DNA of 64,000 nucleotides from a virus (IMGVR_UViG_3300014205_000003:64001-128000); one strand, 5' to 3'; positions 2,243-52,503 are shown, counted from the stretch's first letter. The notes: generated by a model from the sequence alone, not told the origin. Translations and numbers: made by a program.

Positions 2243-3136
2243 ATGTCCACTTACCTCTTCAGTTATGTGAAGGCTCTTGTAAGTCCTGTAGACTATTCCA
2301 CTACAGTTGAGTGGAAGCTTGTCAAGGGCTACAAGCCTGTCTCAGCTACTTTGAATTTCTACGTAGAGGTAGCTCGAGCTGGTGGAGACTTTACACGACT
2401 CAATCCTTCTGCTCCTGTTGTGAATGATTTCCACTACACCGACAGTATTAGATATCAGTACAACATTCAGAACGACATCGTATATCGTGTAGTGATGGAA
2501 GACAACGGAACTTCGTATGCTTCTATCCCTGTACAGATTGGTGGACCTCTTTCCAGTCAAGAGCGAAACTTGGTAAGGGAGATCAGTCGTAGGAAGTATG
2601 TACAGCTGGTAAAACGCACAGGTGTGCGCGGATACTTACTTAGAGCTAGGGATTGGGGAACAGACTGTCCTAACAACGATCCAGACTCTGAGACACCTTT
2701 TACAGGTGAGTGTCCTCTCTGCTACGGTGGAGGGATTCTTGGTGGTTTCTTTCCAGCGATTGAGTATTGGCTTGAGCCTGCTGAGAAAGCTGGAATAGAG
2801 CGTAAGACAGATGGAACTACTGGAACAGAGATGACTCATATCTCTAAGTGGCGGTGTATTAACTATCCTGCAGTGTTTCCAGATGATTTGTGGGTTGATG
2901 CGCAGACAGGCGACAGATACACAGTTGCTCCTGAGTACATTCCAGAAGTGTACATCAGGAGTTATCCTATAATGGGTATCATTGCTATGACTAAGCTTCC
3001 TCCTACGTCATATCTGTACAATGTTCCAGTAGGTTCTGGAGCCGCTACAGGGACGGATGGCTGGACGAGTGGACTAGCGACGATTGCTGCGCGTGGACAA
3101 GAACAGCTTACAGAACCTAGAGAAGTACTCTTTTAA
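2243..3136 (+). CDS. Putative head-closure/neck protein with Zn-finger
   Basis: GYLLRAR.WG..C...CPLCYGGG..GGFF pattern typical of phage neck proteins. Confidence 0.55.
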   Translation: MSTYLFSYVKALVSPVDYSTTVEWKLVKGYKPVSATLNFYVEVARAGGDFTRLNPSAPVVNDFHYTDSIRYQYNIQNDIVYRVVMEDNGTSYASIPVQIGGPLSSQERNLVREISRRKYVQLVKRTGVRGYLLRARDWGTDCPNNDPDSETPFTGECPLCYGGGILGGFFPAIEYWLEPAEKAGIERKTDGTTGTEMTHISKWRCINYPAVFPDDLWVDAQTGDRYTVAPEYIPEVYIRSYPIMGIIAMTKLPPTSYLYNVPVGSGAATGTDGWTSGLATIAARGQEQLTEPREVLF

Positions 3137-3168
3137 ACGCACAGATGTGCACTTTTCAGGAACAGACG

Positions 3169-3978
3169 ATGCAAGACAAACTGGCAGCTCTGCTTGGTGG
3201 AATGTTGAACGAGTATGTCTCAGGAGCTTCTGACTTGGCTGCTGGACAGGCAGGGGCGCCTGCTACAGGCTCTACAACTGCCAATGGGGACATTGTACCG
3301 TCTACCAACGAAGTCATGCTCCAGAGGCGATTGGCTGACGTTATGAAGCCTGTCTATCAGATGGCTGGACAAGCTAAGGAACATGAAGCTCGTCGTATCC
3401 GTGAAACGATGTTTGGAATCAAACCAGATGCTCCTACAGCTAATCCTATTGCTAAAGGCGTCTCAGAGTTCTTAGCTACTCGCTTGTACAACAGAGATCT
3501 TCAGCCGTACATCAAGGCTATGGAAGAGGAAGCTAAGAACAATGTACGAAACTCTTCTGCAGGTGAGGCTGGATATGGCGATCAGTGGAAGTCTACGATT
3601 ACCAGTTTCATTGCTCATCCAGATGCTGAAGTGAATCAGTATGGCAATCTGCTTAACATTATGAGTAAGACTCAAGACATGCAGACTAAGCAGAAAGCTC
3701 AGATAGGTTTGAACGCTTTGAAGAAGCGTTGGGTAAAGACAAATCAGGGAGATAAGCTGGCTTTGCTTCATCAGTTGGAAGCTCTGAAGAGCACTAAGGG
3801 GAAATCTGCTGACTTAGGTCAGGTGCAGAAGAAAGCTATTCGTTCGATGAAGACGTACTTGGACAGTTTGAAGTTCAATGTGGGACAGGACAACAAGGTT
3901 CGAGGATATAAGACATATCCTGTGAACAATGCGCAGATGGACGCGGCTAATCAGGAAGCGCAGGCTGTAAAGATCTAA
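3169..3978 (+). CDS. Hypothetical helical protein
   Basis: Long ORF; start uncertain (3145 or 3169). Confidence 0.55.
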   Translation: MQDKLAALLGGMLNEYVSGASDLAAGQAGAPATGSTTANGDIVPSTNEVMLQRRLADVMKPVYQMAGQAKEHEARRIRETMFGIKPDAPTANPIAKGVSEFLATRLYNRDLQPYIKAMEEEAKNNVRNSSAGEAGYGDQWKSTITSFIAHPDAEVNQYGNLLNIMSKTQDMQTKQKAQIGLNALKKRWVKTNQGDKLALLHQLEALKSTKGKSADLGQVQKKAIRSMKTYLDSLKFNVGQDNKVRGYKTYPVNNAQMDAANQEAQAVKI

Positions 3979-4602
3979 ATGACTACATACGTTGAACCAA
4001 CTTGGGGACTTCCGTCTGATCAATTTGTCAGACAGCAGAGCATCTTCTCGCAGAAGCCTATGGACATGCAAGCTCTTTCCGGCTTGCTTATTCGCTACAT
4101 GCAGATGTGCTTTATGGCTCCTACGAGTATTGTGAATCCTGACTTGCAGACGCTGTTGTGGAATTCGGATACGCAGTTGTCGAAGATCTTTATTGGAAGT
4201 GGTGCGGCGATAAATACTGCGAATGCGGGACAGAAGCCTGGAATCTATATTAGTAGAGATGAAGTTAAGACATTGGACATCAACATTCCTCCGAATGTGG
4301 TACAAGTATCTGTAGGACATTCGCCAACAGATCCAATGATCTTCAACGATACTTTTGTAGGCGCTCATACAATACGAGCTGAGAGTGGTAACTGTTACGA
4401 AGCTGAAGCGATAGGTCAGGAGATGTTCTTGAAGTTGTTGATCTTCCACAGTGTTATACAGGATGACGCACAACTTCGAATGTTGACACTTAGCAATTTG
4501 ACAAAGGTTCAGAAAGCTGAGAACGGAAACTTTGTGACAGGTATTGTAATGAGTTGGGCCGCAGATTTCAATTATTCACTTCCAACGATGGAAACTTGGT
4601 GA
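3979..4602 (+). CDS. Putative tail completion/terminator protein
   Basis: Size, position between neck and tube-like genes, KPGIYISR and EAEAIG motifs. Confidence 0.45.
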   Translation: MTTYVEPTWGLPSDQFVRQQSIFSQKPMDMQALSGLLIRYMQMCFMAPTSIVNPDLQTLLWNSDTQLSKIFIGSGAAINTANAGQKPGIYISRDEVKTLDINIPPNVVQVSVGHSPTDPMIFNDTFVGAHTIRAESGNCYEAEAIGQEMFLKLLIFHSVIQDDAQLRMLTLSNLTKVQKAENGNFVTGIVMSWAADFNYSLPTMETW

Positions 4603-4613
4603 GGTAAAAGAAC

Positions 4614-5066
4614 ATGGCTATTTCGACCTACGCAGCAAGTCCTTACTTCTTCACGATGTCTATCAGTGTTCCTGGGGAGACTGGTGGAGACAACATCATC
4701 GAAGGTATTGCAGATCTTACTCTGGACTGGACTAAGCCAATCCGTAAGTACAAGAACTTGGACGACAACTTCGTTCAGCTTGTCTATGGCAAGGCTGAGG
4801 GTCGAATGGTTCTTAGGGGCTTTGCTACCAGTTCGGAGATTGCGAATGTGTTCGCTACTACAGACACTTACTACACTGGTGGTGTGATGCCGAGTGCTTG
4901 GACTGCTCCTGTAGAGATTGCCATTATAGCTAAGTCGAGTCTTGCAGATGCTGGACAGACGGCTTCGTATACTGGTTACAACACTGGTGGCGGGTTTACG
5001 TTCCGACAGGTTGAGGAACGCATCTGGGTTTTGGATGGTATCAAGATCTTCGAGATATTCGAATAA
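4614..5066 (+). CDS. Putative tail tube-like protein
   Basis: 150 aa beta-rich ORF with RBS; position. Confidence 0.4.
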   Translation: MAISTYAASPYFFTMSISVPGETGGDNIIEGIADLTLDWTKPIRKYKNLDDNFVQLVYGKAEGRMVLRGFATSSEIANVFATTDTYYTGGVMPSAWTAPVEIAIIAKSSLADAGQTASYTGYNTGGGFTFRQVEERIWVLDGIKIFEIFE

Positions 5067-5083
5067 CTTAAGGAACACATAAG

Positions 5084-5494
5084 ATGCGCGCATTAAATCT
5101 TCAGAACGCCAACGCTACTTTTACGATTGCTTCTGTTAGTAAGGACTTGGTGTCTAATGTCTCTTATCAGACATCTACACGTCCTGTTGAGTTGGACTTG
5201 CCAGAGGGATCGAGCTTCTTGTGGCCATTGCGTGAAGGTCAGCTTACTTTTGAGCATCAGCTTGCTCCTGGGGTTGCTCCTACCTCACAGCCTGCTACGC
5301 TGACGAAGACTACGATTGTGGTTACTGCTCGTCAGAAAGAGACAGGAGCGTCTGGTACGATGACTTTGACTACTTCCAGTGCGTACTTGACAGCGATCAA
5401 CATTACTACAACGCGTATCCAAGGGTTGGCTATGCCAGTGTTGACGGAACGTCTGACGTATACACTCTTGGTGGACGACGATGGCGCTACCTAA
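5084..5494 (+). CDS. Putative tail tube-like protein
   Basis: 136 aa Thr-rich beta protein; position. Confidence 0.4.
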   Translation: MRALNLQNANATFTIASVSKDLVSNVSYQTSTRPVELDLPEGSSFLWPLREGQLTFEHQLAPGVAPTSQPATLTKTTIVVTARQKETGASGTMTLTTSSAYLTAINITTTRIQGLAMPVLTERLTYTLLVDDDGAT

Positions 5495-5910
5495 TGCATC
5501 TTCAGACAAACTGGCACAATGTTCCTGCGACACTGTATCGAGGCAACATCAGCTTCGCTACACCAGTTGATCCGTCTGTAGATACTTACCTTCAGAGAGT
5601 TCCTGTATATCTCAGGAATGTCTCTATTTCCTACAACACCATTGAGATCTATCAGTACGGGAATCCGCAAGATTGGATTACTCGTATTCCTAAAGGTGGA
5701 ACCATATCCTGTTCAGGCATTATGGTTCCTACAGATTCTTCTCTCAAGTGGATAACTGCTAAGTTCTGGGAACGAGTAGTTATAGGAAACTTCGGAGGCT
5801 TCGAGGCCTGTAGAATCCTCAATCAGACCTTGACAGCTGAGCCGATTGCTGGAGGTTTGTCTGTACTTCATGGATCTTACACATTCTCTTTTGAGAGGAG
5901 AATTCCATGA
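5494..5910 (+). CDS. Putative tail structural protein
   Basis: Translationally coupled; beta-rich. Confidence 0.4.
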   Translation: MHLQTNWHNVPATLYRGNISFATPVDPSVDTYLQRVPVYLRNVSISYNTIEIYQYGNPQDWITRIPKGGTISCSGIMVPTDSSLKWITAKFWERVVIGNFGGFEACRILNQTLTAEPIAGGLSVLHGSYTFSFERRIP

Positions 5911-6407
5911 GAGTAGCAAATTTCATTCGTCCTCGACACAGCAACAGCGCTACTGCAGATTACGCCTCGTACTGCAAGATTCCTGAGCTTGATCCTGCGA
6001 TGATGATTCAGAGCATTGCCATCTCTTGGGACAATGCTCAAAACTTCAACTCTGGTTTGTACGGAGCTGTTGCGATGGATCGCAAAGGAACTGTACAAAT
6101 AGGTTTCCTCTACACGTCTACACCAGCGGCTACAGGGACATTCTTTGAAGAGCCTTACATTGCTACGATGACTATCTCTGCAGGATTCTACAGCGGAGGA
6201 ACGTTAGAGAATCATTCGATGCCTCTGTATGGTTGTCAGCAGCGTGCTATATCTATACAGACTGTTGATCATGGTAATGGAGCCTTTACATTAGAAGGGC
6301 AAGTTACTTATTCTTTTGCTTGTGCAGATGACGACAACAACGGAGTAAGTCTTGGTGGTTATGCAAACACTGCACCTAATCGTCCTTGGTATCATGCACG
6401 CAGTTAG
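5907..6407 (+). CDS. Putative tail structural protein
   Basis: Translationally coupled; beta-rich. Confidence 0.4.
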   Translation: MRVANFIRPRHSNSATADYASYCKIPELDPAMMIQSIAISWDNAQNFNSGLYGAVAMDRKGTVQIGFLYTSTPAATGTFFEEPYIATMTISAGFYSGGTLENHSMPLYGCQQRAISIQTVDHGNGAFTLEGQVTYSFACADDDNNGVSLGGYANTAPNRPWYHARS

Positions 6408-6428
6408 TAAACAAGAAGGAATCTGAAA

Positions 6429-6842
6429 ATGAGTGAAGTATCTGCAGAAGACGTTCAAGAGTATATGCGTTGTCTCTTGGGTCGACGTCCGTTCATCAAG
6501 ACTTATCCGATATGTGGTAAAGAGCTCTGCAGCTTGCAGACTATGACTACAAAGAGTCGGATGCGGTTGAACAAGTTCATGGCTTGGTGTGAGACTCAGA
6601 AGGACATTGCAGCAGATACTTCTGACAGAGCAAACTTAGTTTTTCGTACAGATAGGGCTTGCGAGTTGGAGAAGCTTAGTGACGAAGACATCTTGAAGGC
6701 CTTGCATACGACATATGATGATTGGGTGTATGAGAGTTATGTAGCACACATCAGGTGTTTGCAGGAGTTCATACAGCTCATTGAGACTTTGAGAGAGAAA
6801 GTCTTGGAAGTGGATTTTTGGAAGGGCGCTGGGCAGGGCTAA
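6429..6842 (+). CDS. Tail assembly chaperone (gpG-like)
   Basis: Ends ..EVDFW over slippery G GAT TTT (6812-6818); precedes an overlapping -1 frame ORF and a TMP-like gene. Confidence 0.6.
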   Translation: MSEVSAEDVQEYMRCLLGRRPFIKTYPICGKELCSLQTMTTKSRMRLNKFMAWCETQKDIAADTSDRANLVFRTDRACELEKLSDEDILKALHTTYDDWVYESYVAHIRCLQEFIQLIETLREKVLEVDFWKGAGQG

Positions 6843-7132
6843 CCCTCGACGCCTTTCTGGACAAAGCCTTAGACTTCTCCTACATAACTCGAGACGATCC
6901 TGAGAGCTTGTTGCAGGAAGAGTTAGCACACAAGTGGTTGTTTAGGAAGCGTCAGTTAGTTTCTCGTACGATGCAGACGCTTTATGGTATTCATATACAG
7001 GCTGTAAGTGACAGTCTGAAGATAGAGACAGAGGCGTCCGAGACGTTCAAGTTGATGTTTCCGTGGCAAGTTGAGAAACCTTGGTCACCTGAAGACTTGG
7101 CAGATGTAATGCAGTTCTTCAAGAAGAGTTAG
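6818..7132 (+). CDS. Tail assembly chaperone gpT-like extension, reached by -1 frameshift
   Basis: -1 frame relative to the 6429 ORF; called start is a TTG overlapping the slippery run. Confidence 0.6.
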   Translation: MEGRWAGLTLDAFLDKALDFSYITRDDPESLLQEELAHKWLFRKRQLVSRTMQTLYGIHIQAVSDSLKIETEASETFKLMFPWQVEKPWSPEDLADVMQFFKKS

Positions 7133-7134
7133 AC

Positions 7135-8808
7135 ATGGCAGACGAAGAGAAGAAACAACCAGTAGCTGAGAAGGTTTTTCCTCCTGTTGTGGAGAAGTCT
7201 ATAGCAGATACTCCAGTCGCTGAGAGAGCTCCTGAGAAGTCTGTTGAGAACGTTCCTGAGAGAGCTCCTGAGAGAGCTCCTGAGCCTAAGAACTCTCAAA
7301 AAGAGATAGACGACAATAACAAGAACGCTCAGGGCTTTGCTAAGTTACCTGAGAAAGGTACTCCAAACGCTTTTGAGGTTAAAGTAAAAAGCCCAGCAGA
7401 GCGTGCAACAGGTTTTGCTAAGTTACCAGATACAGGAACTCCAAACACGTTTGGTAGACGTAAAGAAGCTCCTGCAATGACTGTAGAGAAGGCGTCTGAA
7501 GAACGCAGAGTAGCTGCAAAGAAGATTACTGAGACTAAGGATGCTGGTGGCACTAATGAGCGTGGAATGGCTTATTTGGATGCTCGACAAGCTGCTGTTA
7601 CTGCACGAGAAGAAGTAAAAGCAAGTCCTACAAAAGAGAACAAAGAGAAGCTGAAAACAGCTTATGAAGGCTTTACTGAATCTCGTAAAGCCGCAATGCA
7701 AGATCCGTCGACTAAGGATGCCGTACAGACCTTTGAGAAAGCAGCTTCTCAGGAAGAGAGAGTAGTATCTGCACAGCGATCGAAGGAGCAGAAAGCTTTT
7801 GCTACTTCTGAGAAGGCTCGTACAGAACGTATAAGTACTAAGGAAGGTGCTGTAGCAGAGGTTAAGAGTCTTGGCAAACAAGGTCAGCAACTTGAGAACA
7901 ATGTTGCTCGTGCCTCAAACACCTTAGAGACTACCCGAGAGTCTGCAAGACAGGACAAGCTTTCTCCTAAGGCCAAAGAGTACGTTCAAGCTGAAGACAC
8001 TATTAGAAATGAAAAATCTTCAGATAAAGAGAAGCAGAGCGCTGTAGCCGCTAAGACTAAACTAGAAGAAGACTTTAAGCAGGCGAAACCCAAGGATAAA
8101 GATCCAGGACTTCAAAAACTGGCAACAGATAAAGCCAATGTAGAGAAAGCATCTGCTGCTCAAGCGCAAACAATGCCTCGTCTTGCTCAAGAGCGTCAAG
8201 AAGCCCTTCGAGCTGTAGAAAGTGCACCTACAGCAGAAGCTAAAAAGAAGCAAGAGGTTGCCTCAGCTGAGAAAACTAAACAAGCGTCTGCAGCAACCGC
8301 TGAAGCAGATGCTCGCAAAGAAGATCCCACAAGAGGGAAAACTCTTAAGCTGAATAATGGCTTGCAGTACTACTCAGACAAGTCGTCAGATACTGCGGAT
8401 AAACCCCAAACTCGTACAGTAGTTCGCAACGGAATGCAGATGCAAGAGCCTGTTCAGCAGGCTGAGAAGGGTTCTGGAAAACGCACAGATGTGCGCGGAA
8501 GTGACTCTCAGGCCTCTGCAACAACCACTGAAACCGATAAGAGTAAAGAGACTCCTAAAACTCGTACTGTAGTTCGTAATGGCATGCAGATGCAGGAAGA
8601 GGTTAAAGCTTCTCCTAAGGACAAGACACCTGAAGCATCTCCTGAACAACAAGAAGCTATGAAGTCTCTCACTAAAGGTGCTAGAGAAGCTATAGGAGAC
8701 AGAGCAGCTTCTAAGACATCTGGTGGAAGTTCTACAGATGACATGAAGCAGATGTTGACAGAGATGAAGTTGAAGGTGGATGTGCTCTACTCAGAGATTG
8801 TGAGATAA
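7135..8808 (+). CDS. Possible tape measure-like protein, highly charged with internal repeats
   Basis: Directly after the G/GT pair; K/E/A-rich helical; repeats APER, GFAKLP..GTPN.F x2, TRTVVRNGMQMQE x2. Confidence 0.4.
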   Translation: MADEEKKQPVAEKVFPPVVEKSIADTPVAERAPEKSVENVPERAPERAPEPKNSQKEIDDNNKNAQGFAKLPEKGTPNAFEVKVKSPAERATGFAKLPDTGTPNTFGRRKEAPAMTVEKASEERRVAAKKITETKDAGGTNERGMAYLDARQAAVTAREEVKASPTKENKEKLKTAYEGFTESRKAAMQDPSTKDAVQTFEKAASQEERVVSAQRSKEQKAFATSEKARTERISTKEGAVAEVKSLGKQGQQLENNVARASNTLETTRESARQDKLSPKAKEYVQAEDTIRNEKSSDKEKQSAVAAKTKLEEDFKQAKPKDKDPGLQKLATDKANVEKASAAQAQTMPRLAQERQEALRAVESAPTAEAKKKQEVASAEKTKQASAATAEADARKEDPTRGKTLKLNNGLQYYSDKSSDTADKPQTRTVVRNGMQMQEPVQQAEKGSGKRTDVRGSDSQASATTTETDKSKETPKTRTVVRNGMQMQEEVKASPKDKTPEASPEQQEAMKSLTKGAREAIGDRAASKTSGGSSTDDMKQMLTEMKLKVDVLYSEIVR

Positions 8809-9386: not shown

Positions 9387-9387
9387 G

Positions 9388-9900: not shown

Positions 9901-9903
9901 CTT

Positions 9904-10356: not shown

Positions 10357-10703
10357 TGAGTAATCTTGTTAGAAGAGAAGAGTTAGATGCCACTAGACAG
10401 AAGCTTACTGTCTTAGAGGGAAACGGGATAAAGGTTGATCAGACTCTAGATGGTCAGAAGGTAAGTGTTAACAATGACTTGAGAGCTGTAGCGTCTGCGT
10501 CTGGACCGATAGTAGTTACAGGATTGGTAGCATATGGGGGAGGTTTTTACAGGGCTACTGTTTCACCAGAGTTCCCACCGTCAGCTGCAGATTCAGTGCT
10601 TGTAGAACTGGTCCACATTCATCTTAATGACTCTATATCTAGCACAACCCGCTTATCCGTAATCCCACAGAATCCTTGGATGTACGCAGGACCTTTTCCA
10701 TGA
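10356..10703 (+). CDS. Putative tail protein
   Basis: ATG overlaps upstream TAA; N-terminus weakly similar to the preceding gene. Confidence 0.4.
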   Translation: MSNLVRREELDATRQKLTVLEGNGIKVDQTLDGQKVSVNNDLRAVASASGPIVVTGLVAYGGGFYRATVSPEFPPSAADSVLVELVHIHLNDSISSTTRLSVIPQNPWMYAGPFP

Positions 10704-16906: not shown

Positions 16907-17731
16907 ATGCCAACTGTCCCCGACGTCTCTGCAATGGTTCGTACGTACTACAACGCCCCTACCCTAGCTGCCTGCCTAGAATCTCTTACCAAACACAAAG
17001 AGATTACAGACATTGCAGTTACTACCAACGAACCTCCAGACGGTCCTGCACACTCCCTCGTCCCTGAAATGATGAAGGTCTATCCTCAGATTACCTTTCA
17101 TCACTATCCACACAACCTTACTCCCTTCGACGCCGCTAAGACTATTCCTCTGGACGATCCCACAGGCTGGTGGAACTACGCTAACTTCGCTCACCGCAAA
17201 TGCAAGAACGACCAAGTCCTCAAGGTAGATGGAGATCAAGTCTTAATCTTTGAAGGAGCACGCAAGCTATTTGAGACCTCAAGGACTCAAGAGTTCCTAG
17301 GATTGACCTGCTGGGAACTTACGTCTCCTAAAAGCAGGACTAAAGAGTTCACTGGAGAAGAACCGCGATACTGGAACAAGAACTTAGGCGTCAAGTTCTA
17401 CAGATTCCCAGGTCAAGGATTCGAGTACATCTGGAATCCTCATTGGGGAACTGATAAGTTTACAGGCTGGGGACCATGTATTCGTAGACTCGGAGCAGAC
17501 ATTCCAGTGTTCCTTCACTACGGCTGGCTGACGTCTACAGACCCTGTACGTCCTGCCAGAAACCTCGAACAGGTTCCCTACACAGGTACTCATTCAAATC
17601 TCGTTGACCTCGAAAAAGCCTTTGAAAAGTGCACACCTGTGCGCGAAGAACCCACTGTTCAAGCTCAACCAGTCACTGAAGAACGTCTTGCAGAACTTGT
17701 AAGCATCCTGAAGGAGGTGATGAAGCAGTGA
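16907..17731 (+). CDS. Glycosyltransferase, GT-A fold (GT2-like)
   Basis: VSAMVRTYYNAPTLAACLESL; VLKVDGD DxD motif; FLHYGW. Confidence 0.75.
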   Translation: MPTVPDVSAMVRTYYNAPTLAACLESLTKHKEITDIAVTTNEPPDGPAHSLVPEMMKVYPQITFHHYPHNLTPFDAAKTIPLDDPTGWWNYANFAHRKCKNDQVLKVDGDQVLIFEGARKLFETSRTQEFLGLTCWELTSPKSRTKEFTGEEPRYWNKNLGVKFYRFPGQGFEYIWNPHWGTDKFTGWGPCIRRLGADIPVFLHYGWLTSTDPVRPARNLEQVPYTGTHSNLVDLEKAFEKCTPVREEPTVQAQPVTEERLAELVSILKEVMKQ

Positions 17732-24175: not shown

Positions 24176-25225
24176 TTATGCCACCAGTTTGGGGAATGCG
24201 CGAACAAGAATGCTGGCGTGTTCTGCAGTAATCTTCTTGAGGTCGTCTGACGTAGTCAGGTCAAGAGCAAGCGCGTCTTTGCAAAACTCGCCAATAGCCT
24301 TAGCCTGCTTCTGAATCTCCGAAGTCTTCACCAGAGTACCGTTAGGAAGCAGGATGTACTGACTCTTCATAGCCTGAGCCTGCTTATTGACTACGCCCCC
24401 GAAAACATCCTCGCAAGCAGGCATTTGACGAGTATAGCAGTGATTAGCACTGCAGAGTCCCACGAAGCGCGTCAAGTCATCCACGAGAGCTGCAGTCTTA
24501 TCCAAGAAAGCTTCATCAACAATGTCACCGCTGGCAGTCTTCTCAAGCTCTTCAAAGCCATTCTTGAGAGTCTGTACAGCTTCAATGTGACCAGCCTTAT
24601 GCAGATAAGACATCCTGTCCTTGACGACCTGCTTAACAGTACTCAACGCGGCTTTCTGCATACCCGCAGTACGTTGGAGCGCTACAATCTGTTCGTCCGC
24701 TACTTTGCTCAGGAACTCCTTAGGAGCCTGCAGCAGTTGTTTAGCGACATCTCGACGTGTATCCCAAGGGTACTTCTCCTTATGAGCGAGCAGATCTGAA
24801 GCGACCTTCTCGAAGTCCTCAAAAGTGCACACCTGTGCGCGAGCTTCCTCCATGTCCTTGTGAGTATACGTAATAGTCATTACAGGAGCCGCAGCTTCCT
24901 TCACCAACTGTTCCGGCGAATAGGTAAAGGAATCGCCAATCTGCCAGAAGTCAATTGCTGTCAGCAAGCGCTGGCTGATCTCGTTGCGAAGACCTCGAGG
25001 ATACTCAGCAGCCTGTTTGGTGAAGTATGTAGTAGAGAGCCAAGTGTCTGCAGGAGTGGGAACAGGGAACTGACGCTTGTCAGGATCTGCAAAGCTCTCG
25101 GAAGGCAGTGTCTTCAAGTCCTCTGGCGACACAAGCTCAGCTTCTTTGACGAAGTCAGGCATGTGAATAAGACTGCCGATCTTGAAGAGGTGGCCACGAG
25201 AAGTGTCTTGAGTGTGATCCTGCAT
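24176..25225 (-). CDS. Hypothetical protein, possibly head morphogenesis
   Basis: 349 aa ORF with RBS; FADP..R.FP motif; repeated K-x-A. Confidence 0.6.
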   Translation of the reverse strand: MQDHTQDTSRGHLFKIGSLIHMPDFVKEAELVSPEDLKTLPSESFADPDKRQFPVPTPADTWLSTTYFTKQAAEYPRGLRNEISQRLLTAIDFWQIGDSFTYSPEQLVKEAAAPVMTITYTHKDMEEARAQVCTFEDFEKVASDLLAHKEKYPWDTRRDVAKQLLQAPKEFLSKVADEQIVALQRTAGMQKAALSTVKQVVKDRMSYLHKAGHIEAVQTLKNGFEELEKTASGDIVDEAFLDKTAALVDDLTRFVGLCSANHCYTRQMPACEDVFGGVVNKQAQAMKSQYILLPNGTLVKTSEIQKQAKAIGEFCKDALALDLTTSDDLKKITAEHASILVRAFPKLVA

Positions 25226-35099: not shown

Positions 35100-36218
35100 A
35101 TGATCGCATCTATTGCAGACTCACACATCGGTAAGTGTATTCGTAAAGGCATCGCAGAACTCGAGAAAGATGGAGCAGAAGCTCTTGGTCGAATGCTGGA
35201 TGCTATTCTAGTTAAAGCTCACGGCGAGCCTGTTCATCTCTTGGTTGCAGGAGACTCTGCAGATACTGTCTCTATCGACGGAGCAGGCATCCAAGGTCTA
35301 GTCAATCAGCTCAATGCTTTCGTAGACAAAGGAAACACTGTCTACTACATCCAAGGCAATCACGACAAGCAACGCTCCTCCATGCACTCTAAGCCAATCC
35401 TGGATAGTGTGCACAACAGTGTATATCTTCACAACAATCGAGTAGTCGTAGAAGGTAAAGTTATCAGAGGCCTTGACTATACGCCTCCTGAGAGTCTGAA
35501 GGAAGCTCTCAAGACCAAAGATGTCTCTTGCGATATTCTTGTCCTCCATGCAGCCTTCGAAGAAATCCTTCCATTTGCCAACGCGTTTGACTTGTCCTTT
35601 GAGGATGTTCCCAGTACTGTAGGAACGGTCATTGCAGGCGACATTCACACAGCTCGTAAATTGCAGTTGGTCGCTGGAGAGAATCGCTTCTTTGTGTCTC
35701 CTGGTGGCGTGCACAGCTGTGCAGTTGACCAGAAAGGTCCCTTTGGCTTCTGGACACTTGTGAAGGATGATTGGATCTTCACAGCTTGTCCTACAAGGGA
35801 GATTGTGGAAAGTGATTTGACTGAGATGGAAACTGTTGAGAGTCTTGGTGCGTTTATTCAACAACTTACCGACACTGCAAGAGCTCTTCCCAATCAAGCA
35901 AACTTGAAGCCTATTCTCAATCTCAAGTGGGACAGGAGTCGCTCTGATCTGTTCGACAAGTGTGTTGAAGTCTTGCAGAGTACTTATGTGATACTTGAGG
36001 AAGCGTATACCAGTAATGGAAAGGCTTTGGATGTCAAGGAGCTTCAGAGAGCTATGACAGACTTCAAAGCTACTACGATGGATGTGGCACTTCCGTTTGT
36101 GTGTGATGCGGCTCAGACGCCTCAAGTGTACAAGTTGCTTGAGCAGTGTTTAACAACTAAAGAGGCTCTTCCAGTTGTGGAGGGATTCATCAACATGGCA
36201 AAGGCAGGAACAATATGA
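35100..36218 (+). CDS. sbcD: SbcD/Mre11-like metallophosphoesterase nuclease
   Basis: ADSH, AGD, GNHD, LH, GDIH motifs. Confidence 0.85.
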   Translation: MIASIADSHIGKCIRKGIAELEKDGAEALGRMLDAILVKAHGEPVHLLVAGDSADTVSIDGAGIQGLVNQLNAFVDKGNTVYYIQGNHDKQRSSMHSKPILDSVHNSVYLHNNRVVVEGKVIRGLDYTPPESLKEALKTKDVSCDILVLHAAFEEILPFANAFDLSFEDVPSTVGTVIAGDIHTARKLQLVAGENRFFVSPGGVHSCAVDQKGPFGFWTLVKDDWIFTACPTREIVESDLTEMETVESLGAFIQQLTDTARALPNQANLKPILNLKWDRSRSDLFDKCVEVLQSTYVILEEAYTSNGKALDVKELQRAMTDFKATTMDVALPFVCDAAQTPQVYKLLEQCLTTKEALPVVEGFINMAKAGTI

Positions 36219-38582: not shown

Positions 38583-40625
38583 GTGATTCCACTCTATTTC
38601 CGCTTAAGGAACTTCTGTCAGCAGAAGGATACCAAAGTCGACTATCGCTTCGGCATTACAGGTCTCATTGGCAACAATGGACATGGTAAATCAAACCTCA
38701 TCGATGCAGGTCAGTTCTTTGCCTGGACAGGCCAAGTCGTCAAAGACAAGAAAGAAGACTATCTGACTTGGGGACAATCCTCAGGCTCTGCTCAAGTCCA
38801 ATTCCAAGACAACAATCGAACCTACACGCTTACTCGTAATCTTCACAACGCTGGATGTACTCTCAAGTGGACATCTGCTAGTGGAGACACAGGTGAAGAG
38901 AAAGGCATCAAAGTTGTCGACAAGATCCTCGAAGAAGACATCCTTGGAATGCCCTTCGAAGTCTTTCGAGAAGCTAAGTTCTGCGCTCAGACTTCCCTGA
39001 TCGAAATTCTCAACATGACTGCTTCCAAGCGTATGGAGTACTTCCAAAAACTTGCAGGTGTTCAACGTGCTGAACAAATAAGAGGACTTCTGCAGACTAA
39101 GTCCAATGAACTTCCCAACGTTATGGATGTGTCTGCAGACATCAAGTCCATTGAGGACTCTGTAGTAGTGGCAGAAGAGACTGTCAACAACGCTGGTGTA
39201 GCTCTGAAGGCTTGGATGGCTACTTTGCCTTCTGAGGGTGCTGTAGAAGCTTTGGGACGCATCAATCAGACTCTCAAGACTACTCGAACTGTTGATGAAG
39301 TGTCAGCAGATATTGTTAAGTGCATACGTATTGTTCAAGAAAACACTCAGCGCATTAAAGACCTCAATGTAGACACTGCTCTGGTTCCAGTCGATCCTCC
39401 GACGCCGGAAGAGACTCTGGCAGCACAGCATACAGGATTCATCACCGCTAATAACAAGAAGATCGAAGATTTGACTCTTCAAGCTTCTAAGATTGCTGTC
39501 TATCAGATTCTTTCCAAGCCGGATACCAAACAAGTAGAAGACTTCCGAGAACTGTTAGGTAAGCAGCGTCCACTGTATGAAAGTGCTAAGACAGGTAAAT
39601 GTGAAACCTGTAAGCGTCCCTTTGAGTTTCAGGAAGATCCCAAAGAGATTATCAAGCGCTTCGAGGAAGCTGAGAAGGTCTTTGCGCTGGCTTCTGCAGA
39701 ACTCAAGCGTCAGCAGAGTGATTATGAGAAGAACACTCAAGACATTGTAAGAGCTTCTACTTCCAAGTCTGGCCTGACTAGGCAGGTTGCGGAATTGGAA
39801 GCAGATAACACTCGGAGACAAGCTTCCATACCCTCAGGCTTTGCTTTAGCTATCTATGAGCAGAAAGTTGCTAAGTATCAGACTTGGCAGAGTCAACAGG
39901 CTCACTTGAACAGCGTTCAGAAGCAAGTCAAGGAATATGAGAAGGCTATCCTAAGTGCACAGATGTGCGCGGAACAGCTGAAGAAGGAGCCTGAGCTTAC
40001 CAAGGAAGACGTTGAGAAGTTGACTCAGGAGAAGATTCGGATCGAAGATGCCTTGAGTCAGATCTCAAGCATTCAAACAGCTCAAGTGTCTGCTCAAGCT
40101 CTCATTCTGAGCAGTAAGTCGCAGTTGGATAGGTTGAAGAAGCAGCAAGAGCAGTTTGTGTTGTATGGAAAGATTAGAGGATGGCTTGAATCGGCTAGGA
40201 CATATCTGCACAGGGATGTTCTGCCTAAATTCGTGATGAGTCGACTTTTGACAGGTATGAACTCATGCTTGTCGTACTACTTGGCTCGCTTCAACGCTCC
40301 GTACAATGCTCGAGTGGATGAGAACTTTCAGTTCAAGGTTCAGTTCAAGACTGGCCCTGAGGTGTCTGCTTCTCGACTGTCTGGTGGCGAGTCTGTAGCG
40401 CTTGTGGTGGCGTTTCGCTTCGCATTGGCTGAACTGCTAGGGAAATCCTTTCCACTATTGGTAATGGATGAGCCTACAGCTTGGCTAGATCAGGAGAAGA
40501 AGCAGGTGATGGTTGATGTATTGAAAACGGCTAAGGGATTTGCTGAGAAGGGTTCGTATGTGTTCGTAGTTACACATGATCACATTCTGCTTCCGGCAAT
40601 GACACGCACGATAGAGGTTGAATAG
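38583..40625 (+). CDS. sbcC: SbcC/Rad50-like SMC ATPase
   Basis: GNNGHGKS, coiled coil with CETC hook, LSGGE, LVMDEPT, VTHD. Confidence 0.92.
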   Translation: MIPLYFRLRNFCQQKDTKVDYRFGITGLIGNNGHGKSNLIDAGQFFAWTGQVVKDKKEDYLTWGQSSGSAQVQFQDNNRTYTLTRNLHNAGCTLKWTSASGDTGEEKGIKVVDKILEEDILGMPFEVFREAKFCAQTSLIEILNMTASKRMEYFQKLAGVQRAEQIRGLLQTKSNELPNVMDVSADIKSIEDSVVVAEETVNNAGVALKAWMATLPSEGAVEALGRINQTLKTTRTVDEVSADIVKCIRIVQENTQRIKDLNVDTALVPVDPPTPEETLAAQHTGFITANNKKIEDLTLQASKIAVYQILSKPDTKQVEDFRELLGKQRPLYESAKTGKCETCKRPFEFQEDPKEIIKRFEEAEKVFALASAELKRQQSDYEKNTQDIVRASTSKSGLTRQVAELEADNTRRQASIPSGFALAIYEQKVAKYQTWQSQQAHLNSVQKQVKEYEKAILSAQMCAEQLKKEPELTKEDVEKLTQEKIRIEDALSQISSIQTAQVSAQALILSSKSQLDRLKKQQEQFVLYGKIRGWLESARTYLHRDVLPKFVMSRLLTGMNSCLSYYLARFNAPYNARVDENFQFKVQFKTGPEVSASRLSGGESVALVVAFRFALAELLGKSFPLLVMDEPTAWLDQEKKQVMVDVLKTAKGFAEKGSYVFVVTHDHILLPAMTRTIEVE

Positions 40626-44335: not shown

Positions 44336-46897
44336 TGAAAATCAAACTTACCGTCCGTCAAAATCAGTTCCTAGTCTCTCCTTGGCCTCTCTGCCTGGAG
44401 AAGGCTTGTACAGTCACCCTTACTCAGAAAAAATTCTTCTACGACCCGAAAGATCCTCGTCCTATTACCTTCACGCACATCCCTATGTATACGAAGCTTT
44501 CTGAACAAGGAGGCATCGTCTACACAGGATTCCTTCAGAGGGTCCTTAAAGCCCTTGCAAAGGAAGAACACGAAGTGGAAGTCGAAGATCAGCGCATCAA
44601 GCCTTCTGGCACGGTTCCTGAGCTTCCTGAAGGCTCTGAAGGATATCGTGCAGGACAGCGAGAGTTCATTCACGCAATCCTCAACAATCACAGCGGTATT
44701 GGACAAGCTCCTCCAGCCTTTGGAAAGTCCTTTTGCATAGGACAGATCTGTAAGGTTCTGTGCAAGGAGAAGATCTTGGTCACTACGTCTAGGAAGACTG
44801 TGGTGACGATGCTCCTGCAACGTCTCAAAGCTACACTGCCTGACAGGCGAATCAAGCTTTGTGATGGTGCAAAGCCATTTGACGAAACTTGTGATATTGT
44901 AGTGTGCTCGTCAAAATCCCTCCACAAGATTCCTACAGAGTGGCCTCAAGTTCTTCTATTCGATGAAGTGCATGGAGCTGCTGGTCCTCAGGTCTGTCGC
45001 GTACTCGGAAATATGACAAATGTCCGTTTCTACGGTTTTAGCGCAACTCCTACTGGCAGAGGGGATAACGGAGACAAACTTGTAGAAGCTTTGTTTGGTC
45101 CTGTTATTTACAAGATGAACTATGAGCAAGCTTTGGCTAATGGTAATGTCACGCAGACACAAGTCCGTATGGTGCCTATCAAAGGTGCCAATCTCGAGTT
45201 CCACGACACTACTGCAATGAATCGGTATGGCTATTGGCGAAACACACAACGCAATAAGAAGATTGCAGAGGTTGTGGAAGCGTTGCAAGCTGAAGGCTTA
45301 GAAAAGATCCTGATCCTTGTAAACACTGCAGAGCATGCCTTCCATCTGCGTTTGTTCCTTCCTAAGTTTAAGATCGTACATGCTGGGCTCTCCTTGGAGA
45401 AGTTCAACGAGTTTAAGAAGAATGGGCTTCTGACGCCTACAGATTCACCAACTGTAGATGTAGATAAACTCGCCATTGAATTCAAGGAAGCCAAAAATCT
45501 GGGAATCATAAGCACGCCTAAGTGGCGTGAGGGTTTTCGCTGGAATGCCCTTCACAGTAGTAATACTGTGTCGAAACTCTCTTAACTGCTGGGAACTCTC
45601 TACACAGAGACAATCAGCAACGAACCTGTCAACACGTCTTGTGGGTGTAGCGCTTATATTAGTAGTGTGTCTAAACAACAACTACAGGGATAGCACTACA
45701 CATGTCTGACTACACAAACAACCGAGATCTCCTATTTCACCAAGTGAAGGTAGGAGATGTCATAAACAACCGAAAAATTCTTCGCATTGTTGGAGAACCA
45801 TTTCGACTGGTAAATGGAAAACACGCGCCTGTTCCTGAAGGGTGGTCTGGCTGTATATACGGCACGTATGAAGTAAATTGCATAAAATGCGACACCACAA
45901 GTATCGTTTGCGGATTACAAATGCAGACAATCAGCTGTAAAAATGGTCCGTGTAGCAAAAGCTTTAAAGACCTGACAAATATGCGTTTTGGTCAGTTAAC
46001 AATTTTAGCTTATGTACCACATTACAACAAAACAAAAGAACGAGGTGTGAGTTGGCTTACACGCTGCGACTGCGGGCGTGAAACTGTTGTATTTGGCAGG
46101 ATTCTTGTAGATCCAAAGCGTCCTAAAACGTGTTGCAACGTTTGTGCAAGAGCGTCTAAGTCACGAAAACGGAGACTTCCTGAGAGTCTTGCAGGATGGC
46201 GAGAATACTTCAGCAAGACAAAACGGGATTCTCATAAAAAACAAAGAGCTTTCGATTTGTCTTTTGAGGAGTTTAGACGTGTTGCAAGTTTAAACTGCGC
46301 TTACTGCGGAGCCGCCCCGTGTTTGATGTATCATCACACGGAAGTTGTGAGAAATGGGATAGACCGTGTGGATAGTAAACTTGGATACACGTCAACTAAT
46401 GTTGTTGCTTGTTGTAAGATCTGTAATAGAATGAAAATGGAGCTAGACTGCCAGACGTGGTTGGAGCATGTTAGAAAAATAGCAAAACACACAGAACAGA
46501 TTCGCTCAACGACTATCCCTAACGGGAGTACACCTAAGCAGGTGGAAACAGAGAGGGTCCTTCCACAAGAAGGACTTTGATATAGTCTGATCTGCATGGT
46601 GACATGCAGCTGCAGGTGGTGCTGCGGACAGTATCTAGCGCATACTGTTGAACACATATGGTTGATTTCCCAGATTTGTCAGTAGTTGTTCGTGCTGATG
46701 GACTTACGGGGTCAATTCCGTCCATTCAGATCGGTGGTCGCAGTGCTCGTGTATTTGAAAATAAGACTCAGGCTCTTGTAATTGACTTCGAGGATCACTT
46801 TGGTCCTGACATGATGGCCAGAAGCGCCAAGCGAGTCTTGAACTATAAGACTGAAGGTTGGCAAGTTGTAACATGGAACATAGGAGATGCTGAATGA
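44335..46897 (+). CDS. Superfamily 2 helicase; exons 44335-45534 and 46661-46897
   Basis: PPAFGKS, DEVH, SATP; splicing restores motif V EG|VDFP; motif VI QIGGRSAR in exon 2. Confidence 0.9.
45535..46660 (+). mobile_element. Group I intron in the helicase gene
   Basis: Exon ends in U; P1 GAGGGT/GCCCTT; P4 TGCTG/CAGCA; P3 CTCTCT/AGAGAG; P7 GACTA/TAGTC; terminal G46660. Confidence 0.92.
45702..46580 (+). CDS. Intron-encoded HNH-type homing endonuclease
   Basis: CDCG; CAYCG...NGIDRVDSKLGY..TNVVACCKICNRMK. Confidence 0.88.
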   Translation: MSDYTNNRDLLFHQVKVGDVINNRKILRIVGEPFRLVNGKHAPVPEGWSGCIYGTYEVNCIKCDTTSIVCGLQMQTISCKNGPCSKSFKDLTNMRFGQLTILAYVPHYNKTKERGVSWLTRCDCGRETVVFGRILVDPKRPKTCCNVCARASKSRKRRLPESLAGWREYFSKTKRDSHKKQRAFDLSFEEFRRVASLNCAYCGAAPCLMYHHTEVVRNGIDRVDSKLGYTSTNVVACCKICNRMKMELDCQTWLEHVRKIAKHTEQIRSTTIPNGSTPKQVETERVLPQEGL

Positions 46898-49976: not shown

Positions 49977-51277
49977 AAAAAGAAAAGCTGATTGAGTTGT
50001 TGCAGAGTCTTCCAGCAGAGACTGAAGTTTTGATAATGGATAGATGTGATGTGTATTCTCCGGAAGACATTGCAGAAGGTTCTCTTCACCTGCAAGATGT
50101 CTACAGATCACAGCACAAAGGGATGAGCGGATACAGTTGGTATTTCAATCCCTGTAAGGATGCAAGAAAGAAGTCAGTAGTGATTCTTGATTGCTTCTAA
50201 AAACTCAAACGTTACTTAACAGAAAACAAAGGAACTAGGATGACAGTCAAAGAATTCAAAGAGTGGCTGAACAAGCACGGCATAGACGATAGCTACGAGA
50301 TTTGGATTGAGAGCGAAGACGCTGAAATAGAAATCATCGAGACAGACGAGCAACACCTTTCATTCAATCCCAAGAAGCATCGAGTGGTGATCTCATGACA
50401 GTCAAAGAACTTATTGAAGAATTGAAGAAGCATCCTGATACTACGGTGGTGCAGTTTGCTCATAACGAAATCACGAATGATGATGGAATGTCCTTAGCAC
50501 CTGTATATGAAGATGTTTTGCGGTTTGAAAATCGAATTCTATATCAGTACAGGCTTGCCGATGGTTACGTAACAGAGCCCGCTGAGATTAGGCGCAACAT
50601 TGCACCGAAATTTGCTACAGCCACCGAAACATGTATTTCCGTAGTTGTGCTTAGGAGTTAATATGACAGTCAAAGAAATGATTGAGCGACTTAAGAACTA
50701 TCCAGAGGACGCTGAAGTGCAGGTCGATGGCTACGACGATCTTCTACCTATGGAAGAGTGTCCTTGGGAACTCTTTCCAGACAACAACCTTCTTGTCATA
50801 CAAGCGTGGACATACAAATGACAGTCAAAGAACTGATTGAAGAACTGAAGAAGTATCCTGCAGACTTCCCTGTGAAGGTTTTTGTAGATACAGGGTTTGA
50901 CATGGCTTGGGTAGAAGTAGGAACTCTCTTCGATGGTCGCGACGTTGGAGAAAACTGTGTAAAGGTGTGTGAATGACAGTCAAAGAACTTAAGAAATGGC
51001 TCGAAGATATCCCCGATGATGCGGAGGTCTATGTACAAGATACTGAAGAGGGTGGTCTGCTCTATGTGGATAAGGATCTCCTGTACTACGACAAATCAGA
51101 CAATACGGTTGTACTATGACAGTCAAAGATTTGATTGATATGTTGGAAACAGTACCTGAAGATTACGAGATGGAATTCTTCAATTCTTGGGTGGATGATT
51201 ACACGACAAGTTACATAGACGAAGTCGCTGTATGCCCTGATCACAAGAAGAAACGTGTTAGGCTACAAACACAATGA
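49973..51277 (+). CDS. Array of seven small MTVKEL-family genes (49973, 50240, 50395, 50663, 50818, 50973, 51116)
   Basis: Six begin with identical ATGACAGTCAAAGA; several are missing from the ORF track. Confidence 0.85.
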
Positions 51278-52503
51278 TCAATGAACTCCTTTTTCAAGCT
51301 CTCGTAGAAGCTGGTGTAGATCCTGAGATCGTTCGAGAGAATGACTCAGGGTCTTATAAAGTCGATACCATTCCCAGTGGCTTTCAGAAGGGTAAGAAGA
51401 AACTCGCTACAGCCTCAATGATCGACTGGGGTGAATGCATCAGCTTCAAATGTCCTATCTGCGAAGATCACACACGTCGAGCCTTCGTCTCCCACAGGTG
51501 GAATACTCGCCTCGGCAATGTTCAGTTCTCTGACAGACTCTATAAGTGTCACAACGAGGATTGTCAGAAGACTCGTGATATGTACAACTTCTTCAAAGGA
51601 CTCAAACTCCCTGAAGACTATTCCACCGTCTCTGTCAGTCAAGATCCTAAGAAGACTACTAAGGAAGTCAAGGATGCGCAGTTTCTAATCAAGACAGAAG
51701 AGCTTCCTTGGCCCTCTTACAATCTAAGTGATCCCAGAGGTCCCCAGGAGGTCGTTGACTACCTCCAAGCCCGAAATTTCGATATCACAGAGCTCGACAA
51801 GAATTTTGGAGTCCGTAGTGTTCCTGCAGGTGCTGAGTGGAAGTCTGAGACTAAGGTTACAACGTTCCCACAGCCTAGAGTACTAATTCCAGTCTTTCAG
51901 CACATGCACTTGATTGGCTGGCAAGCCAGAAGTATTGAAGCGGGTGTAAAGAAGTTCAAGTACTTGTTTCCTCCGGGTGCTCAGAAGCGTCAATGGCTCT
52001 ATAATTTCGACACAGCACTTCTCTATCCAGAGGTAATCATCTTTGAGGGTGTTACCAATGTTTGGAGAACTGGTCCAGATGCTATTGCTTGTTTTGGCAA
52101 GGGCATCAGTGCAGATCAGATGACTCTGATGAAGCTTGTATGGGGCTTCGACGGAACTGGTGTAATCTGCTTCGATGAAGATGTATACGAGAAGGACATT
52201 GACATACGATTGGCAGGACTTCTCAACTCACAGAGAGTGTTTCCCCTTGGGACAAGTGTTCTACGACTGCGAGGTGGTGATGCCGCAGTGCACACCTGTG
52301 CGCGGATTCGACAGTTGAAGCGTCTCGCACATAGTGTTGCTTCACTCGATGAAGAGGATATTCATGTGATTGACGAGGCGAATGTACCAGAACAAGAAAC
52401 AAGCTCATTGGACGCTCCTCGCTTCACTACAAAGGAATTGCCAAAGATGGTACTTTCTGCGGATGACGACGATGAGGACGACGTCTTTGGGCTGGAGGAA
52501 TAA
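51274..52503 (+). CDS. DNA primase (Zn-binding + TOPRIM)
   Basis: CPIC.D....H..C; YLQARNF; RVLIPV; GWQAR; KY; LYNFD; IFEG; CFDED. Confidence 0.85.
   Translation: MINELLFQALVEAGVDPEIVRENDSGSYKVDTIPSGFQKGKKKLATASMIDWGECISFKCPICEDHTRRAFVSHRWNTRLGNVQFSDRLYKCHNEDCQKTRDMYNFFKGLKLPEDYSTVSVSQDPKKTTKEVKDAQFLIKTEELPWPSYNLSDPRGPQEVVDYLQARNFDITELDKNFGVRSVPAGAEWKSETKVTTFPQPRVLIPVFQHMHLIGWQARSIEAGVKKFKYLFPPGAQKRQWLYNFDTALLYPEVIIFEGVTNVWRTGPDAIACFGKGISADQMTLMKLVWGFDGTGVICFDEDVYEKDIDIRLAGLLNSQRVFPLGTSVLRLRGGDAAVHTCARIRQLKRLAHSVASLDEEDIHVIDEANVPEQETSSLDAPRFTTKELPKMVLSADDDDEDDVFGLEE

Follow-up and report, generated by a model that had tools for sequence, protein, structure and literature searches.

Why does a large uncultured phage carry the same short palindrome, exact in both arms, in tens of copies spread around its genome? 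The question is raised by a 64,000-nucleotide stretch of viral DNA (IMGVR_UViG_3300014205_000003:64001-128000; hereafter the window), which covers bases 64001-128000 of a 188,069-bp virus contig from IMG/VR. The contig is circular, its ends overlapping by 123 bp, and we refer to the ~188-kb phage that it represents as G000. A preliminary description of the window had pointed to eight copies of the 12-bp core GCACA-NN-TGTGC and had proposed that they are binding sites for a dimeric protein acting along the whole genome. All eight copies, with their centers and flanks, were verified by a pattern scan and by flank reading (Table 1), and a whole-genome scan, which that description had called for, raised the count to 28 copies across the contig, showing that the enrichment extends past the window. 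We tentatively propose, at a little less than an even prospect, that these are docking sites on duplex DNA for a putative phage-encoded protein of two-fold symmetry that would act genome-wide.

An exact and evenly spaced palindrome

The eight copies in the window compare with 0.12 expected from dinucleotide-preserving shuffles (at most one copy in any of 100 shuffles), which bears out the earlier estimate that ten fixed bases should occur far less than once per 64 kb by chance. Across the whole contig, a control pattern read backwards gave no match, against 28 for the motif. Only three one-mismatch variants are present in the genome, compared with two in a reversed-sequence control. When arm pairs were scanned with spacers of 0-8 bp, the spacer was 2 bp in 28 of 30 pairs, and no everted pairs were found. 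Symmetry reaches beyond the core. Position -1 is a pyrimidine in all 56 half-sites, the left flanking base always being Y and the right always R, and position -2 is a purine in 52 of 56; thus, the dyad extends to 14-16 bp, and the full motif is Y-GCACA-NN-TGTGC-R. Three half-site types, AGT-GCACA (22), AAC-GCACA (17) and CGC-GCACA (8), together account for 47 of the 56, and the center is GA/TC in 20 copies and GG/CC in 5. Read on the + strand, the base pair adjoining the core is T..G in 13 copies, C..A in 9, C..G in 3 and T..A in 3. A repeat of host origin found no support: among 185,579 species genomes, the 17-base extended motif matched 10 bacterial genomes once each and was never repeated in any of them. 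The 14-base motif pattern gave only single, chance-level matches in IMG/VR.

Gene models throughout are our own simple longest open reading frame (ORF) calls. By these, intergenic DNA makes up 7.2% of the genome, yet 11 of the 28 copies are intergenic (binomial P = 2e-6), an enrichment of approximately fivefold. The count rises to 14 if we include three copies within the first few codons of longest-ORF calls, which probably lie upstream of the true start. The motif had been described as hidden inside coding sequences (CDSs). This does not hold for the genome as a whole, because the window is unrepresentative, and even there the copy at 3139 is intergenic. The CDS copies occupy all three frames and both gene strands, and the earlier observation that copies in unrelated genes encode different peptides is correct, the copies differing in both peptide and reading frame. 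When synonymous codons were shuffled within all called CDSs, a control already proposed for this motif, the mean was 1.1 copies and the maximum 5 (300 shuffles), against 16 observed. Spacing around the genome is significantly even, with about one exact site per 6.7 kb. The gaps between copies have a coefficient of variation (CV) of 0.58, whereas randomly placed sites give 0.95 (P = 0.001), and no gap exceeds 14 kb (P = 0.001). The requirement for the sites therefore seems to lie along the DNA and not with specific genes.

The flanks fall into recognizable classes. Intergenic copies read AAAA-GT-core-G-TTTT or the reverse complement, both orientations being found on the + strand, and they lie 3-25 nt past a stop codon and mostly 12-40 nt ahead of the next start. 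Eight other copies form a sub-class of sites with a GCG(GAA) extension on the + strand: their left flank is A-rich, and their right flank is GCGGA(A/T), or GCGA in two of them. All eight are on the + strand and none on the - strand, seven of the eight being in + strand genes; the word TGTGCGCGGA occurs six times on the + strand and never on the - strand. As first described, six of the window copies (2616, 8483, 17631, 24827, 39957 and 52290) carry the right-hand GCG on the + strand, including the one inside a minus-strand ORF. From this it had been concluded that polarity is set by the chromosome and not by transcription. The one-strand flank is real, but its separation from transcription depends on copy 24827, whose flank, GCGAGC, is degenerate. 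Because ~90% of called ORFs are on the + strand, the strandedness of the GCG flank is inseparable from transcription. The copy at 35711 has uncommon flank types and five more complementary bases on each side.

Palindromes of distant relatives

No close relative of G000 was found by megablast of window positions 1-20000 against GenBank phages, or by a single-protein TerL scan of IMG/VR; TerL identity to GenBank phages is 25% at most. The family to which G000 belongs comprises 438 IMG/VR loci, many on contigs of 160-205 kb, and the family is syntenic with G000. Comparison with six relatives by BLASTP gave matches for only 57 of the 299 G000 ORFs. In genes that have homologues in relatives, the CDS copies of the motif lie in poorly conserved stretches, and most align gap-free (copy 2616, for example, shows no gap at that place against the homologues in relatives G001 and G005), which indicates an origin by substitution and not through a unit having been inserted. 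Copy 17631 lies just outside the part that can be aligned to the homologue in relative L030.

Distant relatives (TerL 34-49% identical) have exact dispersed palindromes of their own. These emerged from whole-genome screens, which were needed because a first de novo palindrome screen of 20-kb loci returned mostly collagen-like coding repeats, tandem arrays and one CRISPR-like array. L030 (TerL 49%) carries TTGCAC-SGCS-GTGCAA (TTGCAC-N4-GTGCAA) twice in 15 kb, one copy being directly past a stop. G001 (41%) has 5-7 copies of GTGCATACCTGTGCAC, five of them in CDSs against 0.6 in codon shuffles. G005 (38%) has 5-6 copies of TAGCATACGTATGCTA, several capping longer site-specific palindromes, one of 40 bp. 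The palindrome of G013 (40%, over a partial alignment), TCTACC-AT-GGTAGA, occurs in 11 exact copies with no one-mismatch variants; 8 of the 11 are intergenic, the gap CV is 0.45 (P = 0.006), and the AAAAG flank is as in G000. In G006 (36%), CAGGA-NN-TCCTG with TTTC/GAAA flanks is present in 11 copies, eight in CDSs against 1.1 in codon shuffles, with a gap CV of 0.56 (P = 0.04). Our screens found no dispersed palindrome in G010 (36%) or G007 (37%).

The dyad center is 0 or 2 bp in four of these relatives (G001, G005, G006 and G013). Nearer relatives have a GCAYA-type arm in common, and farther ones have unrelated arms in a similar build; a shared core, searched for as GCAC-N4-GTGC or GCAYA-NN-TRTGC, was not enriched in distant relatives. 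One site position is common to G000 and G001: window 3139, after ORF 2243-3136, corresponds to G001 39431, directly after the orthologous gene. From the similar build and changed arms, we infer that reader and site co-evolve. The retention of this build across very distant relatives while the arms change points to a putative reader that would be conserved but fast-evolving. A separate observation concerns G010 (IMG/VR 3300049893_001984; loci L146), which has a cluster of 5-6 long terminator-like hairpins, each after AACTGATAGCAAAAG. Their stems, AAAACGCACA...TGTGCGTTTT, have an arm as in the G000 motif, but with loops of 6-12 nt.

Proposed docking sites and competing explanations

Docking of a symmetric protein is the simplest account of a site that is exact, strict in the spacing of its arms, symmetric, present in all frames, evenly distributed, absent as a repeat from bacterial genomes and replaced in relatives. 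A phage-encoded protein, bound as a two-fold-symmetric pair, would recognize Y-GCACA-NN-TGTGC-R on duplex DNA, and selection would keep the observed density of exact sites round the 188-kb genome. The sites would use short gaps where available, typically from a stop codon to the next ribosome-binding site, and would elsewhere be written into weakly conserved coding stretches. Recognition of duplex DNA is favored by the palindromes of G013 and G005, which are perfect to the very center, where a hairpin loop could not pair. The bound protein, we infer, would most likely serve to punctuate, regulate or insulate the transcription carried out by the phage's own RNA polymerase, whether as a roadblock, an insulator or a global regulator.

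In line with such a role, ordinary promoters and terminators are not in excess, the palindrome family makes up most of the intergenic-enriched words, and we saw no further signal that recurs widely. At window positions 1-20000, there are 22 sigma-70-type promoter-like sites, against 25.8 in shuffles, and 11 intrinsic-terminator-like sites, against 13.4, suggesting that the transcription signals of the phage are not of the ordinary kinds. Motif-derived words are the main family among intergenic-enriched 7-mers. The top-ranked 7-mers, TGTCCCT, TAAGTAG and ACCTAAA, had no shared context and no promoter consensus, and TATATTAG has only ~7 copies. The strongly repeated word ATGCTACTGT was rejected as a signal, being a coding tandem repeat with a 24-nt unit. 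In the first ORF of the genome, outside the window, a 24-nt coding tandem repeat, AATGCTACTGTCWATGCC..., gives rise to the second strongest k-mer signal; this is a protein repeat and not a regulatory motif.

Several observations weigh against docking sites of this simple kind. The cognate protein was not found: Pfam and PHROGs scans of ~50 ORFs, among them core genes of the family and those that immediately follow intergenic copies, revealed no plausible dimeric DNA binder. These scans yielded a sigma-like factor, helicases, PolA, a primase, a UvsX-like protein, endonuclease VII and a glycosyltransferase. The sigma-like factor was rejected as the reader, as it would not read a palindrome, and a 79-aa 'core protein' was rejected because it is the C-terminal piece of a split helicase. 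The earlier proposal of genome-wide sites for a dimeric protein is supported indirectly (by invariant arms, a 2-bp spacer, symmetric Y/R, all frames, even spacing and equivalents in relatives), and no protein partner was found. Furthermore, 22 of the 28 sites are heterotypic, with T in one half and C in the other (binomial P ~0.002), and every intergenic A-run/T-run copy combines two different half-site types, which a simple homodimer would not predict. The eight GCG(GAA) flanks are strictly one-stranded, and a symmetric reader leaves them unexplained. The case for a transcriptional role in particular is weak: the minus-strand block at window 22201-27078 is marked by a copy midway but by none where it converges with or diverges from its neighbors, most intergenic gaps have no copy, and most G006 and G001 copies are inside genes. 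Last, there is no relative above 52% TerL identity in the searched collections, that best match being a 1.9-kb contig.

Dispersed sites that are read globally are known from other systems. The stoperators of Cluster A mycobacteriophages (L5, Bxb1) are ~30 asymmetric 13-bp sites oriented with transcription, to which the lysogeny repressor binds, blocking elongation. G000 likewise has tens of short conserved sites in short intergenic gaps genome-wide; however, its core is symmetric, more than half of its copies are in genes, and no lysogeny genes were seen. The stoperator candidate of the preliminary description can therefore be set aside, as the + strand flanks also show both orientations, 13 T..G against 9 C..A, although ~90% of genes are on that strand. 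KorB operators (OB) of the IncP plasmid RK2 are about a dozen near-perfect palindromes over the replicon, some by promoters and some distant or in genes, with a dimer as their global reader. Partition or compaction sites such as parS/ParB, KorB/OB and matS/MatP, through which a symmetric protein would organize, segregate or condense the chromosome and would not regulate genes, are an improbable explanation in our judgment. They would suit the even spacing and the placement of copies within genes irrespective of gene borders. They would also suit the dimensions of the motif: parS, OB and matS sites are similar to it in size and symmetry, and its form fits, by sequence alone, a ParB-type palindrome of ~13-16 bp.

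As with KorB/OB and ParB/parS, the palindromic sites of G000 are dispersed, some of them in genes; unlike those systems, G000 is without detectable ParB_N, has a higher copy number and gives no evidence of a plasmid state. ParB_N (PF02195) was absent from all five genomes searched in six frames at E <= 0.1 (G000, G001, G005, G006 and G013), whereas control genomes matched, and this removes the support for the parS/ParB candidate suggested earlier. The 28 sites round the whole genome are unlike a centromere cluster, and there is no sign of a plasmid-prophage lifestyle, a serine recombinase not having been found. Serine-recombinase crossover sites, which have inverted arms and a 2-bp center, were rejected on the same search, PF00239 being absent at E <= 0.1 from all five genomes. 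Since ParB is absent here, another protein family must be able to fill that part.

Among published cases, the nearest is a 17-bp dyad repeat in Cluster O mycobacteriophages (TGTTCGG-NNN-CCGAACA in Corndog), which has 34 invariant copies and approximately three one-mismatch variants, with ~40% of copies intergenic and the others within genes (PMC4351075). The orientation of its asymmetric center is not tied to transcription, and the motif is absent from the host genome (PMC4351075). The authors deduced that a dimer binds the repeat, thought a role in transcription unlikely and assigned no function (PMC4351075). The kind of signal is thus already known, and the G000 case is new. As a descriptive class, such dispersed invariant dyad repeats have the features that we find in G000: invariant inverted arms, a short variable center, few one-mismatch variants, and tens of copies genome-wide, inside and between genes (14-17 CDS and 11-14 intergenic copies). 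In contrast, the G000 center is 2 bp and not 3 bp, its arms are 5-6 bp and not 7 bp, eight copies have the one-strand GCG(GAA) extension, and there is a favored T/C asymmetry by the core. Even spacing was tested and found in G000, and its distant relatives have different arms, whereas five close Cluster O phages share one motif; the phages themselves are unrelated. Particular to the G000 case are the absence of ParB, the similar build with changing arms over very distant relatives, and the one-strand extension. Dispersed exact phage palindromes have been described before without their function ever being explained. Finding the reader would yield a new sequence-specific DNA-binding module and would probably also explain one layer of genome organization or gene control in large uncultured phages.

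The sites might instead act as RNA, as hairpins in polycistronic transcripts that serve as terminators, processing sites or stabilizers; copies with a T-run would terminate, and GCG-flanked copies within genes would not. The position of intergenic copies just past stop codons, with an A-run before and a T-run after, fits such a role. Folding energies of -13 to -15 kcal/mol were obtained for two of these copies (genome 14888 and 20364), and the in-gene copies are without a T-run. Relatives offer further support in the longer palindromes capped by several G005 copies, in the long G010 hairpins with the same arm, and in the paired position 6/11, which goes from C-G to T.G to T-A in G000, G001 and G005. 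Yet a 2-nt center cannot form a loop, and in about half of the intergenic copies a C.A flanking pair limits the sense-strand stem to 4 bp (-5.1 kcal/mol). Terminators usually vary in their stems, but these arms are invariant; flank orientation does not follow the transcribed strand, with 13 T..G and 9 C..A; G013 copies are followed by AAAAT and not by a U-run; and the G013 and G005 sites are palindromic to the very center. There is no Rfam family in the window, and no motif copy is among the terminator-like sites of window 1-20000. We consider RNA hairpins an unlikely explanation, although one to be taken into account, and the T-runs after intergenic copies and the longer G005 and G010 palindromes keep alive an RNA role for a subset.

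The flank asymmetry and the one-strand GCG(GAA) extension are unexplained by a plain homodimer, which makes a role in DNA processing (nicking, recombination or replication) a serious rival. In one such account, the sites would be single-strand interruptions (nicks) or DNA-processing sites, as in T5, phiKMV and tf: a phage nuclease would read the palindrome and cut the + strand within the GCGCGG next to it. Packaging, late transcription or the recombination-dependent replication implied by the gene set (UvsX-like, SbcCD, endonuclease VII) would then make use of the nicks. We give this account a small but appreciable chance. The localized nick motifs of T5 (R/GCGCRGG), tf (TACT/RTGMC) and phiKMV-like phages are phage-specific, near-exact and one-strand, and their function is unexplained (PMC3517423). 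The G000 motif has several of their properties in common, being phage-specific, near-exact with few one-mismatch variants, dispersed in coding and non-coding DNA, and conserved in position in relatives (PMC3517423). The GCG-flanked sub-class is one-stranded as they are, by 8 to 0 for the copies and 6 to 0 for TGTGCGCGGA, a count that is not meaningful for the symmetric core, the other copies running both ways. T-GCGCGGA also resembles the T5 major-nick consensus R/GCGCRGG (PMC3517423), and the phage encodes UvsX-like, DnaB-like and SbcCD-like proteins and endonuclease VII.

However, known nick motifs are non-palindromic and lie on one strand only, whereas the core here is symmetric. Just 8 of the 28 copies carry the one-strand extension, and the flanks of the other 20 run both ways. 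Agreement with the T5 consensus extends to six of seven positions, with the wrong base before the cut, and was noticed after many comparisons; G013, G001 and G005 are without a comparable one-strand extension. The GCGCGG extension nevertheless offers a possible link to the equally unexplained localized nicks of T5-like phages. A broader conjecture, for which we see limited prospects, is that this family of 160-205-kb phages has a so-far undescribed DNA-marking system. A fast-evolving reader would recognize one exact palindrome per phage every ~7-17 kb; in G000 it would act asymmetrically, nicking or otherwise processing one strand at GCGCGG, and the favored strand would switch at two points of the circle. 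The sites would then be polar replication, recombination or packaging signals and not operators.

The switching of strands is also central to an account in which the sites would form strand-specific single-stranded DNA hairpins in replication. The T.G wobble would let one strand form a longer hairpin, and the favored strand would switch at an origin at ~7-10 kb and a terminus at ~116-128 kb. Between 10 and 116 kb, T..G copies (13, or 15 with the GCG-flanked ones) stand against 2 C..A; from 128 kb round to 7 kb, C..A copies number 7 against 1 T..G, and this exception falls within a reported intron. In permutations corrected for breakpoint choice, P for the best two-domain split was 0.036, or 0.024 once GCG labels were included, and the excess of heterotypic T/C half-sites (22 of 28) fits as well. 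These statistics are marginal, however; the labeling was chosen after the data had been seen, and the orientation-domain pattern, like the tnpB-distance pattern described below, was noticed only on looking at the data. Four-fold-site GC and AT skew of + strand genes is without a shift at those points, and skew analysis of the genome found no origin or terminus. The flank orientations of G013 are interspersed and not in domains, and a phage with its own DnaB-like helicase and primase has no need of hairpin priming signals. The preliminary description had raised the question of whether orientation flips at an origin or terminus, and the answer is divided: there is a weak two-domain T..G/C..A pattern (P = 0.02-0.04), with no matching flip in four-fold-site skew. 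Overall, we regard replication hairpins as a very poor prospect.

Least probable of all is a mobile origin, either as a palindrome spread by a transposase, like a repetitive extragenic palindrome (REP) or a miniature inverted-repeat transposable element (MITE), or as a by-product of the eight TnpB elements of the genome. Both orientations are found just past stop codons, and six of the eight tnpB genes have a motif copy 1.6-2.5 kb to their 3' side, a pattern recognized post hoc. In our view, this origin is already largely refuted. There is no Y1 (RAYT/TnpA) transposase, PF01797 being absent, and more than half of the copies are in CDSs and are not insertions, which excluded REP/RAYT elements. 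IS200/IS605 (TnpB) element ends were likewise excluded, because most of the eight tnpB 3' ends carry a different hairpin, of the GGGGAGCTTATAGTCCCCC type, and not the motif. There are no decayed copies, spacing is regular and not clustered, and the motif is no repeat in bacterial genomes.

Feature coordinates and gene content

Table 1. Motif copies and other features of G000 and its relatives. Coordinates are window positions unless a genome or locus is named.
Feature	Coordinates	Context	Sequence (+ strand) or class
Motif copy	2616..2627	In ORF 2243-3136 (+)	AAAAC-GCACA-GG-TGTGC-GCGGAT; GCG-flanked class
Motif copy	3139..3150	Intergenic, 3 nt past stop of ORF 2243-3136, ~18 nt ahead of next ATG	TAAAC-GCACA-GA-TGTGC-ACTTTT; A-run/T-run class
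Motif copy	8483..8494	In ORF 7135-8808 (+)	AAAAC-GCACA-GA-TGTGC-GCGGAA
Motif copy	17631..17642	Close to 3' end of ORF 16907-17731 (+)	AAAAGT-GCACA-CC-TGTGC-GCGAAG
Motif copy	24827..24838	In minus-strand ORF 24176-25225	AAAAGT-GCACA-CC-TGTGC-GCGAGC
Motif copy	35711..35722	In ORF 35100-36218 (+), metallophosphoesterase (SbcD-like)	Center GC
Motif copy	39957..39968	In SbcC-like gene 38583-40625 (+)	TAAGT-GCACA-GA-TGTGC-GCGGAA
Motif copy	52290..52301	In primase gene 51274-52503 (+)	GCAGT-GCACA-CC-TGTGC-GCGGAT
GCG-flanked copies (n = 8)	Genome 10048, 57060, 66616, 72483, 81631, 88827, 103957, 116290	Always + strand	
tnpB genes (n = 8)	Genome 44836-45900, 50402-51460, 54025-55095, 101301-102368 (window 37301-38368), 142406-143461, 148097-149410, 155453-156592, 184714-185790		
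Sigma-like protein gene	20507-21223	+ strand	
Endonuclease VII gene	27129-27716	+ strand	
Split DEAD/ResIII helicase	44335-45585, 45702-46580, 46658-46897		
Family A DNA polymerase in pieces	56500-57834, 58128-58970, 59065-59772		
Coding tandem repeat	G000 genome 340-640	First ORF	
Terminator-like hairpin cluster	G010 ~1500-5400		
CRISPR-like repeats	L079 5423-5640 and 20839-20930	Same in L080	

The family core includes RNA polymerase-sized ORFs, a sigma-70-like protein, portal/capsid-region genes, a terminase, DnaB-like and DEAD-type helicases, PolA, a primase, a UvsX-like recombinase and SbcCD-like proteins. In the window, a 238-aa protein has sigma region 2/4-like sequence, and its match to Sigma70_r3 is borderline, falling just short of the Pfam cut-off (E = 2.5e-5). 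Its homologues are found in all six relatives compared; thus, the family apparently has a sigma-like factor of its own in addition to the multisubunit RNA polymerase that it encodes. Next to the divergently transcribed terminase block is a gene for recombination endonuclease VII (E = 1e-22), which, together with the UvsX-like, DnaB-like and SbcCD-like genes, points to T4-style recombination-dependent replication.

Two genes of the window are interrupted. The DEAD/ResIII helicase is split: in relatives it is a single protein of 470-570 aa, and the 79-aa ORF 46658-46897 aligns with the C-terminus of that protein. Between the helicase pieces lies a 292-aa ORF preceded by TATATTAGT, which suggests that it may be a mobile-nuclease insertion. 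The family A DNA polymerase is likewise divided: one piece holds the exonuclease with the first half of the polymerase domain, the other holds the last part of that domain, and the ORF between them is also preceded by TATATTAGT, at window 58091. The motif copies found 3' of six tnpB genes lie at distances of 1963, 1965, 2013, 2108, 1590 and 2539 bp, a post hoc observation. In L079, a relative of ~190 kb, and identically in L080, a 28-nt unit, CCCTTATCCACGCACGCGTGGGTGAGAC, recurs with a 62-bp period, four times at the first location and twice at the second; these repeats look like CRISPR-like mini-arrays that may be borne by the phage.

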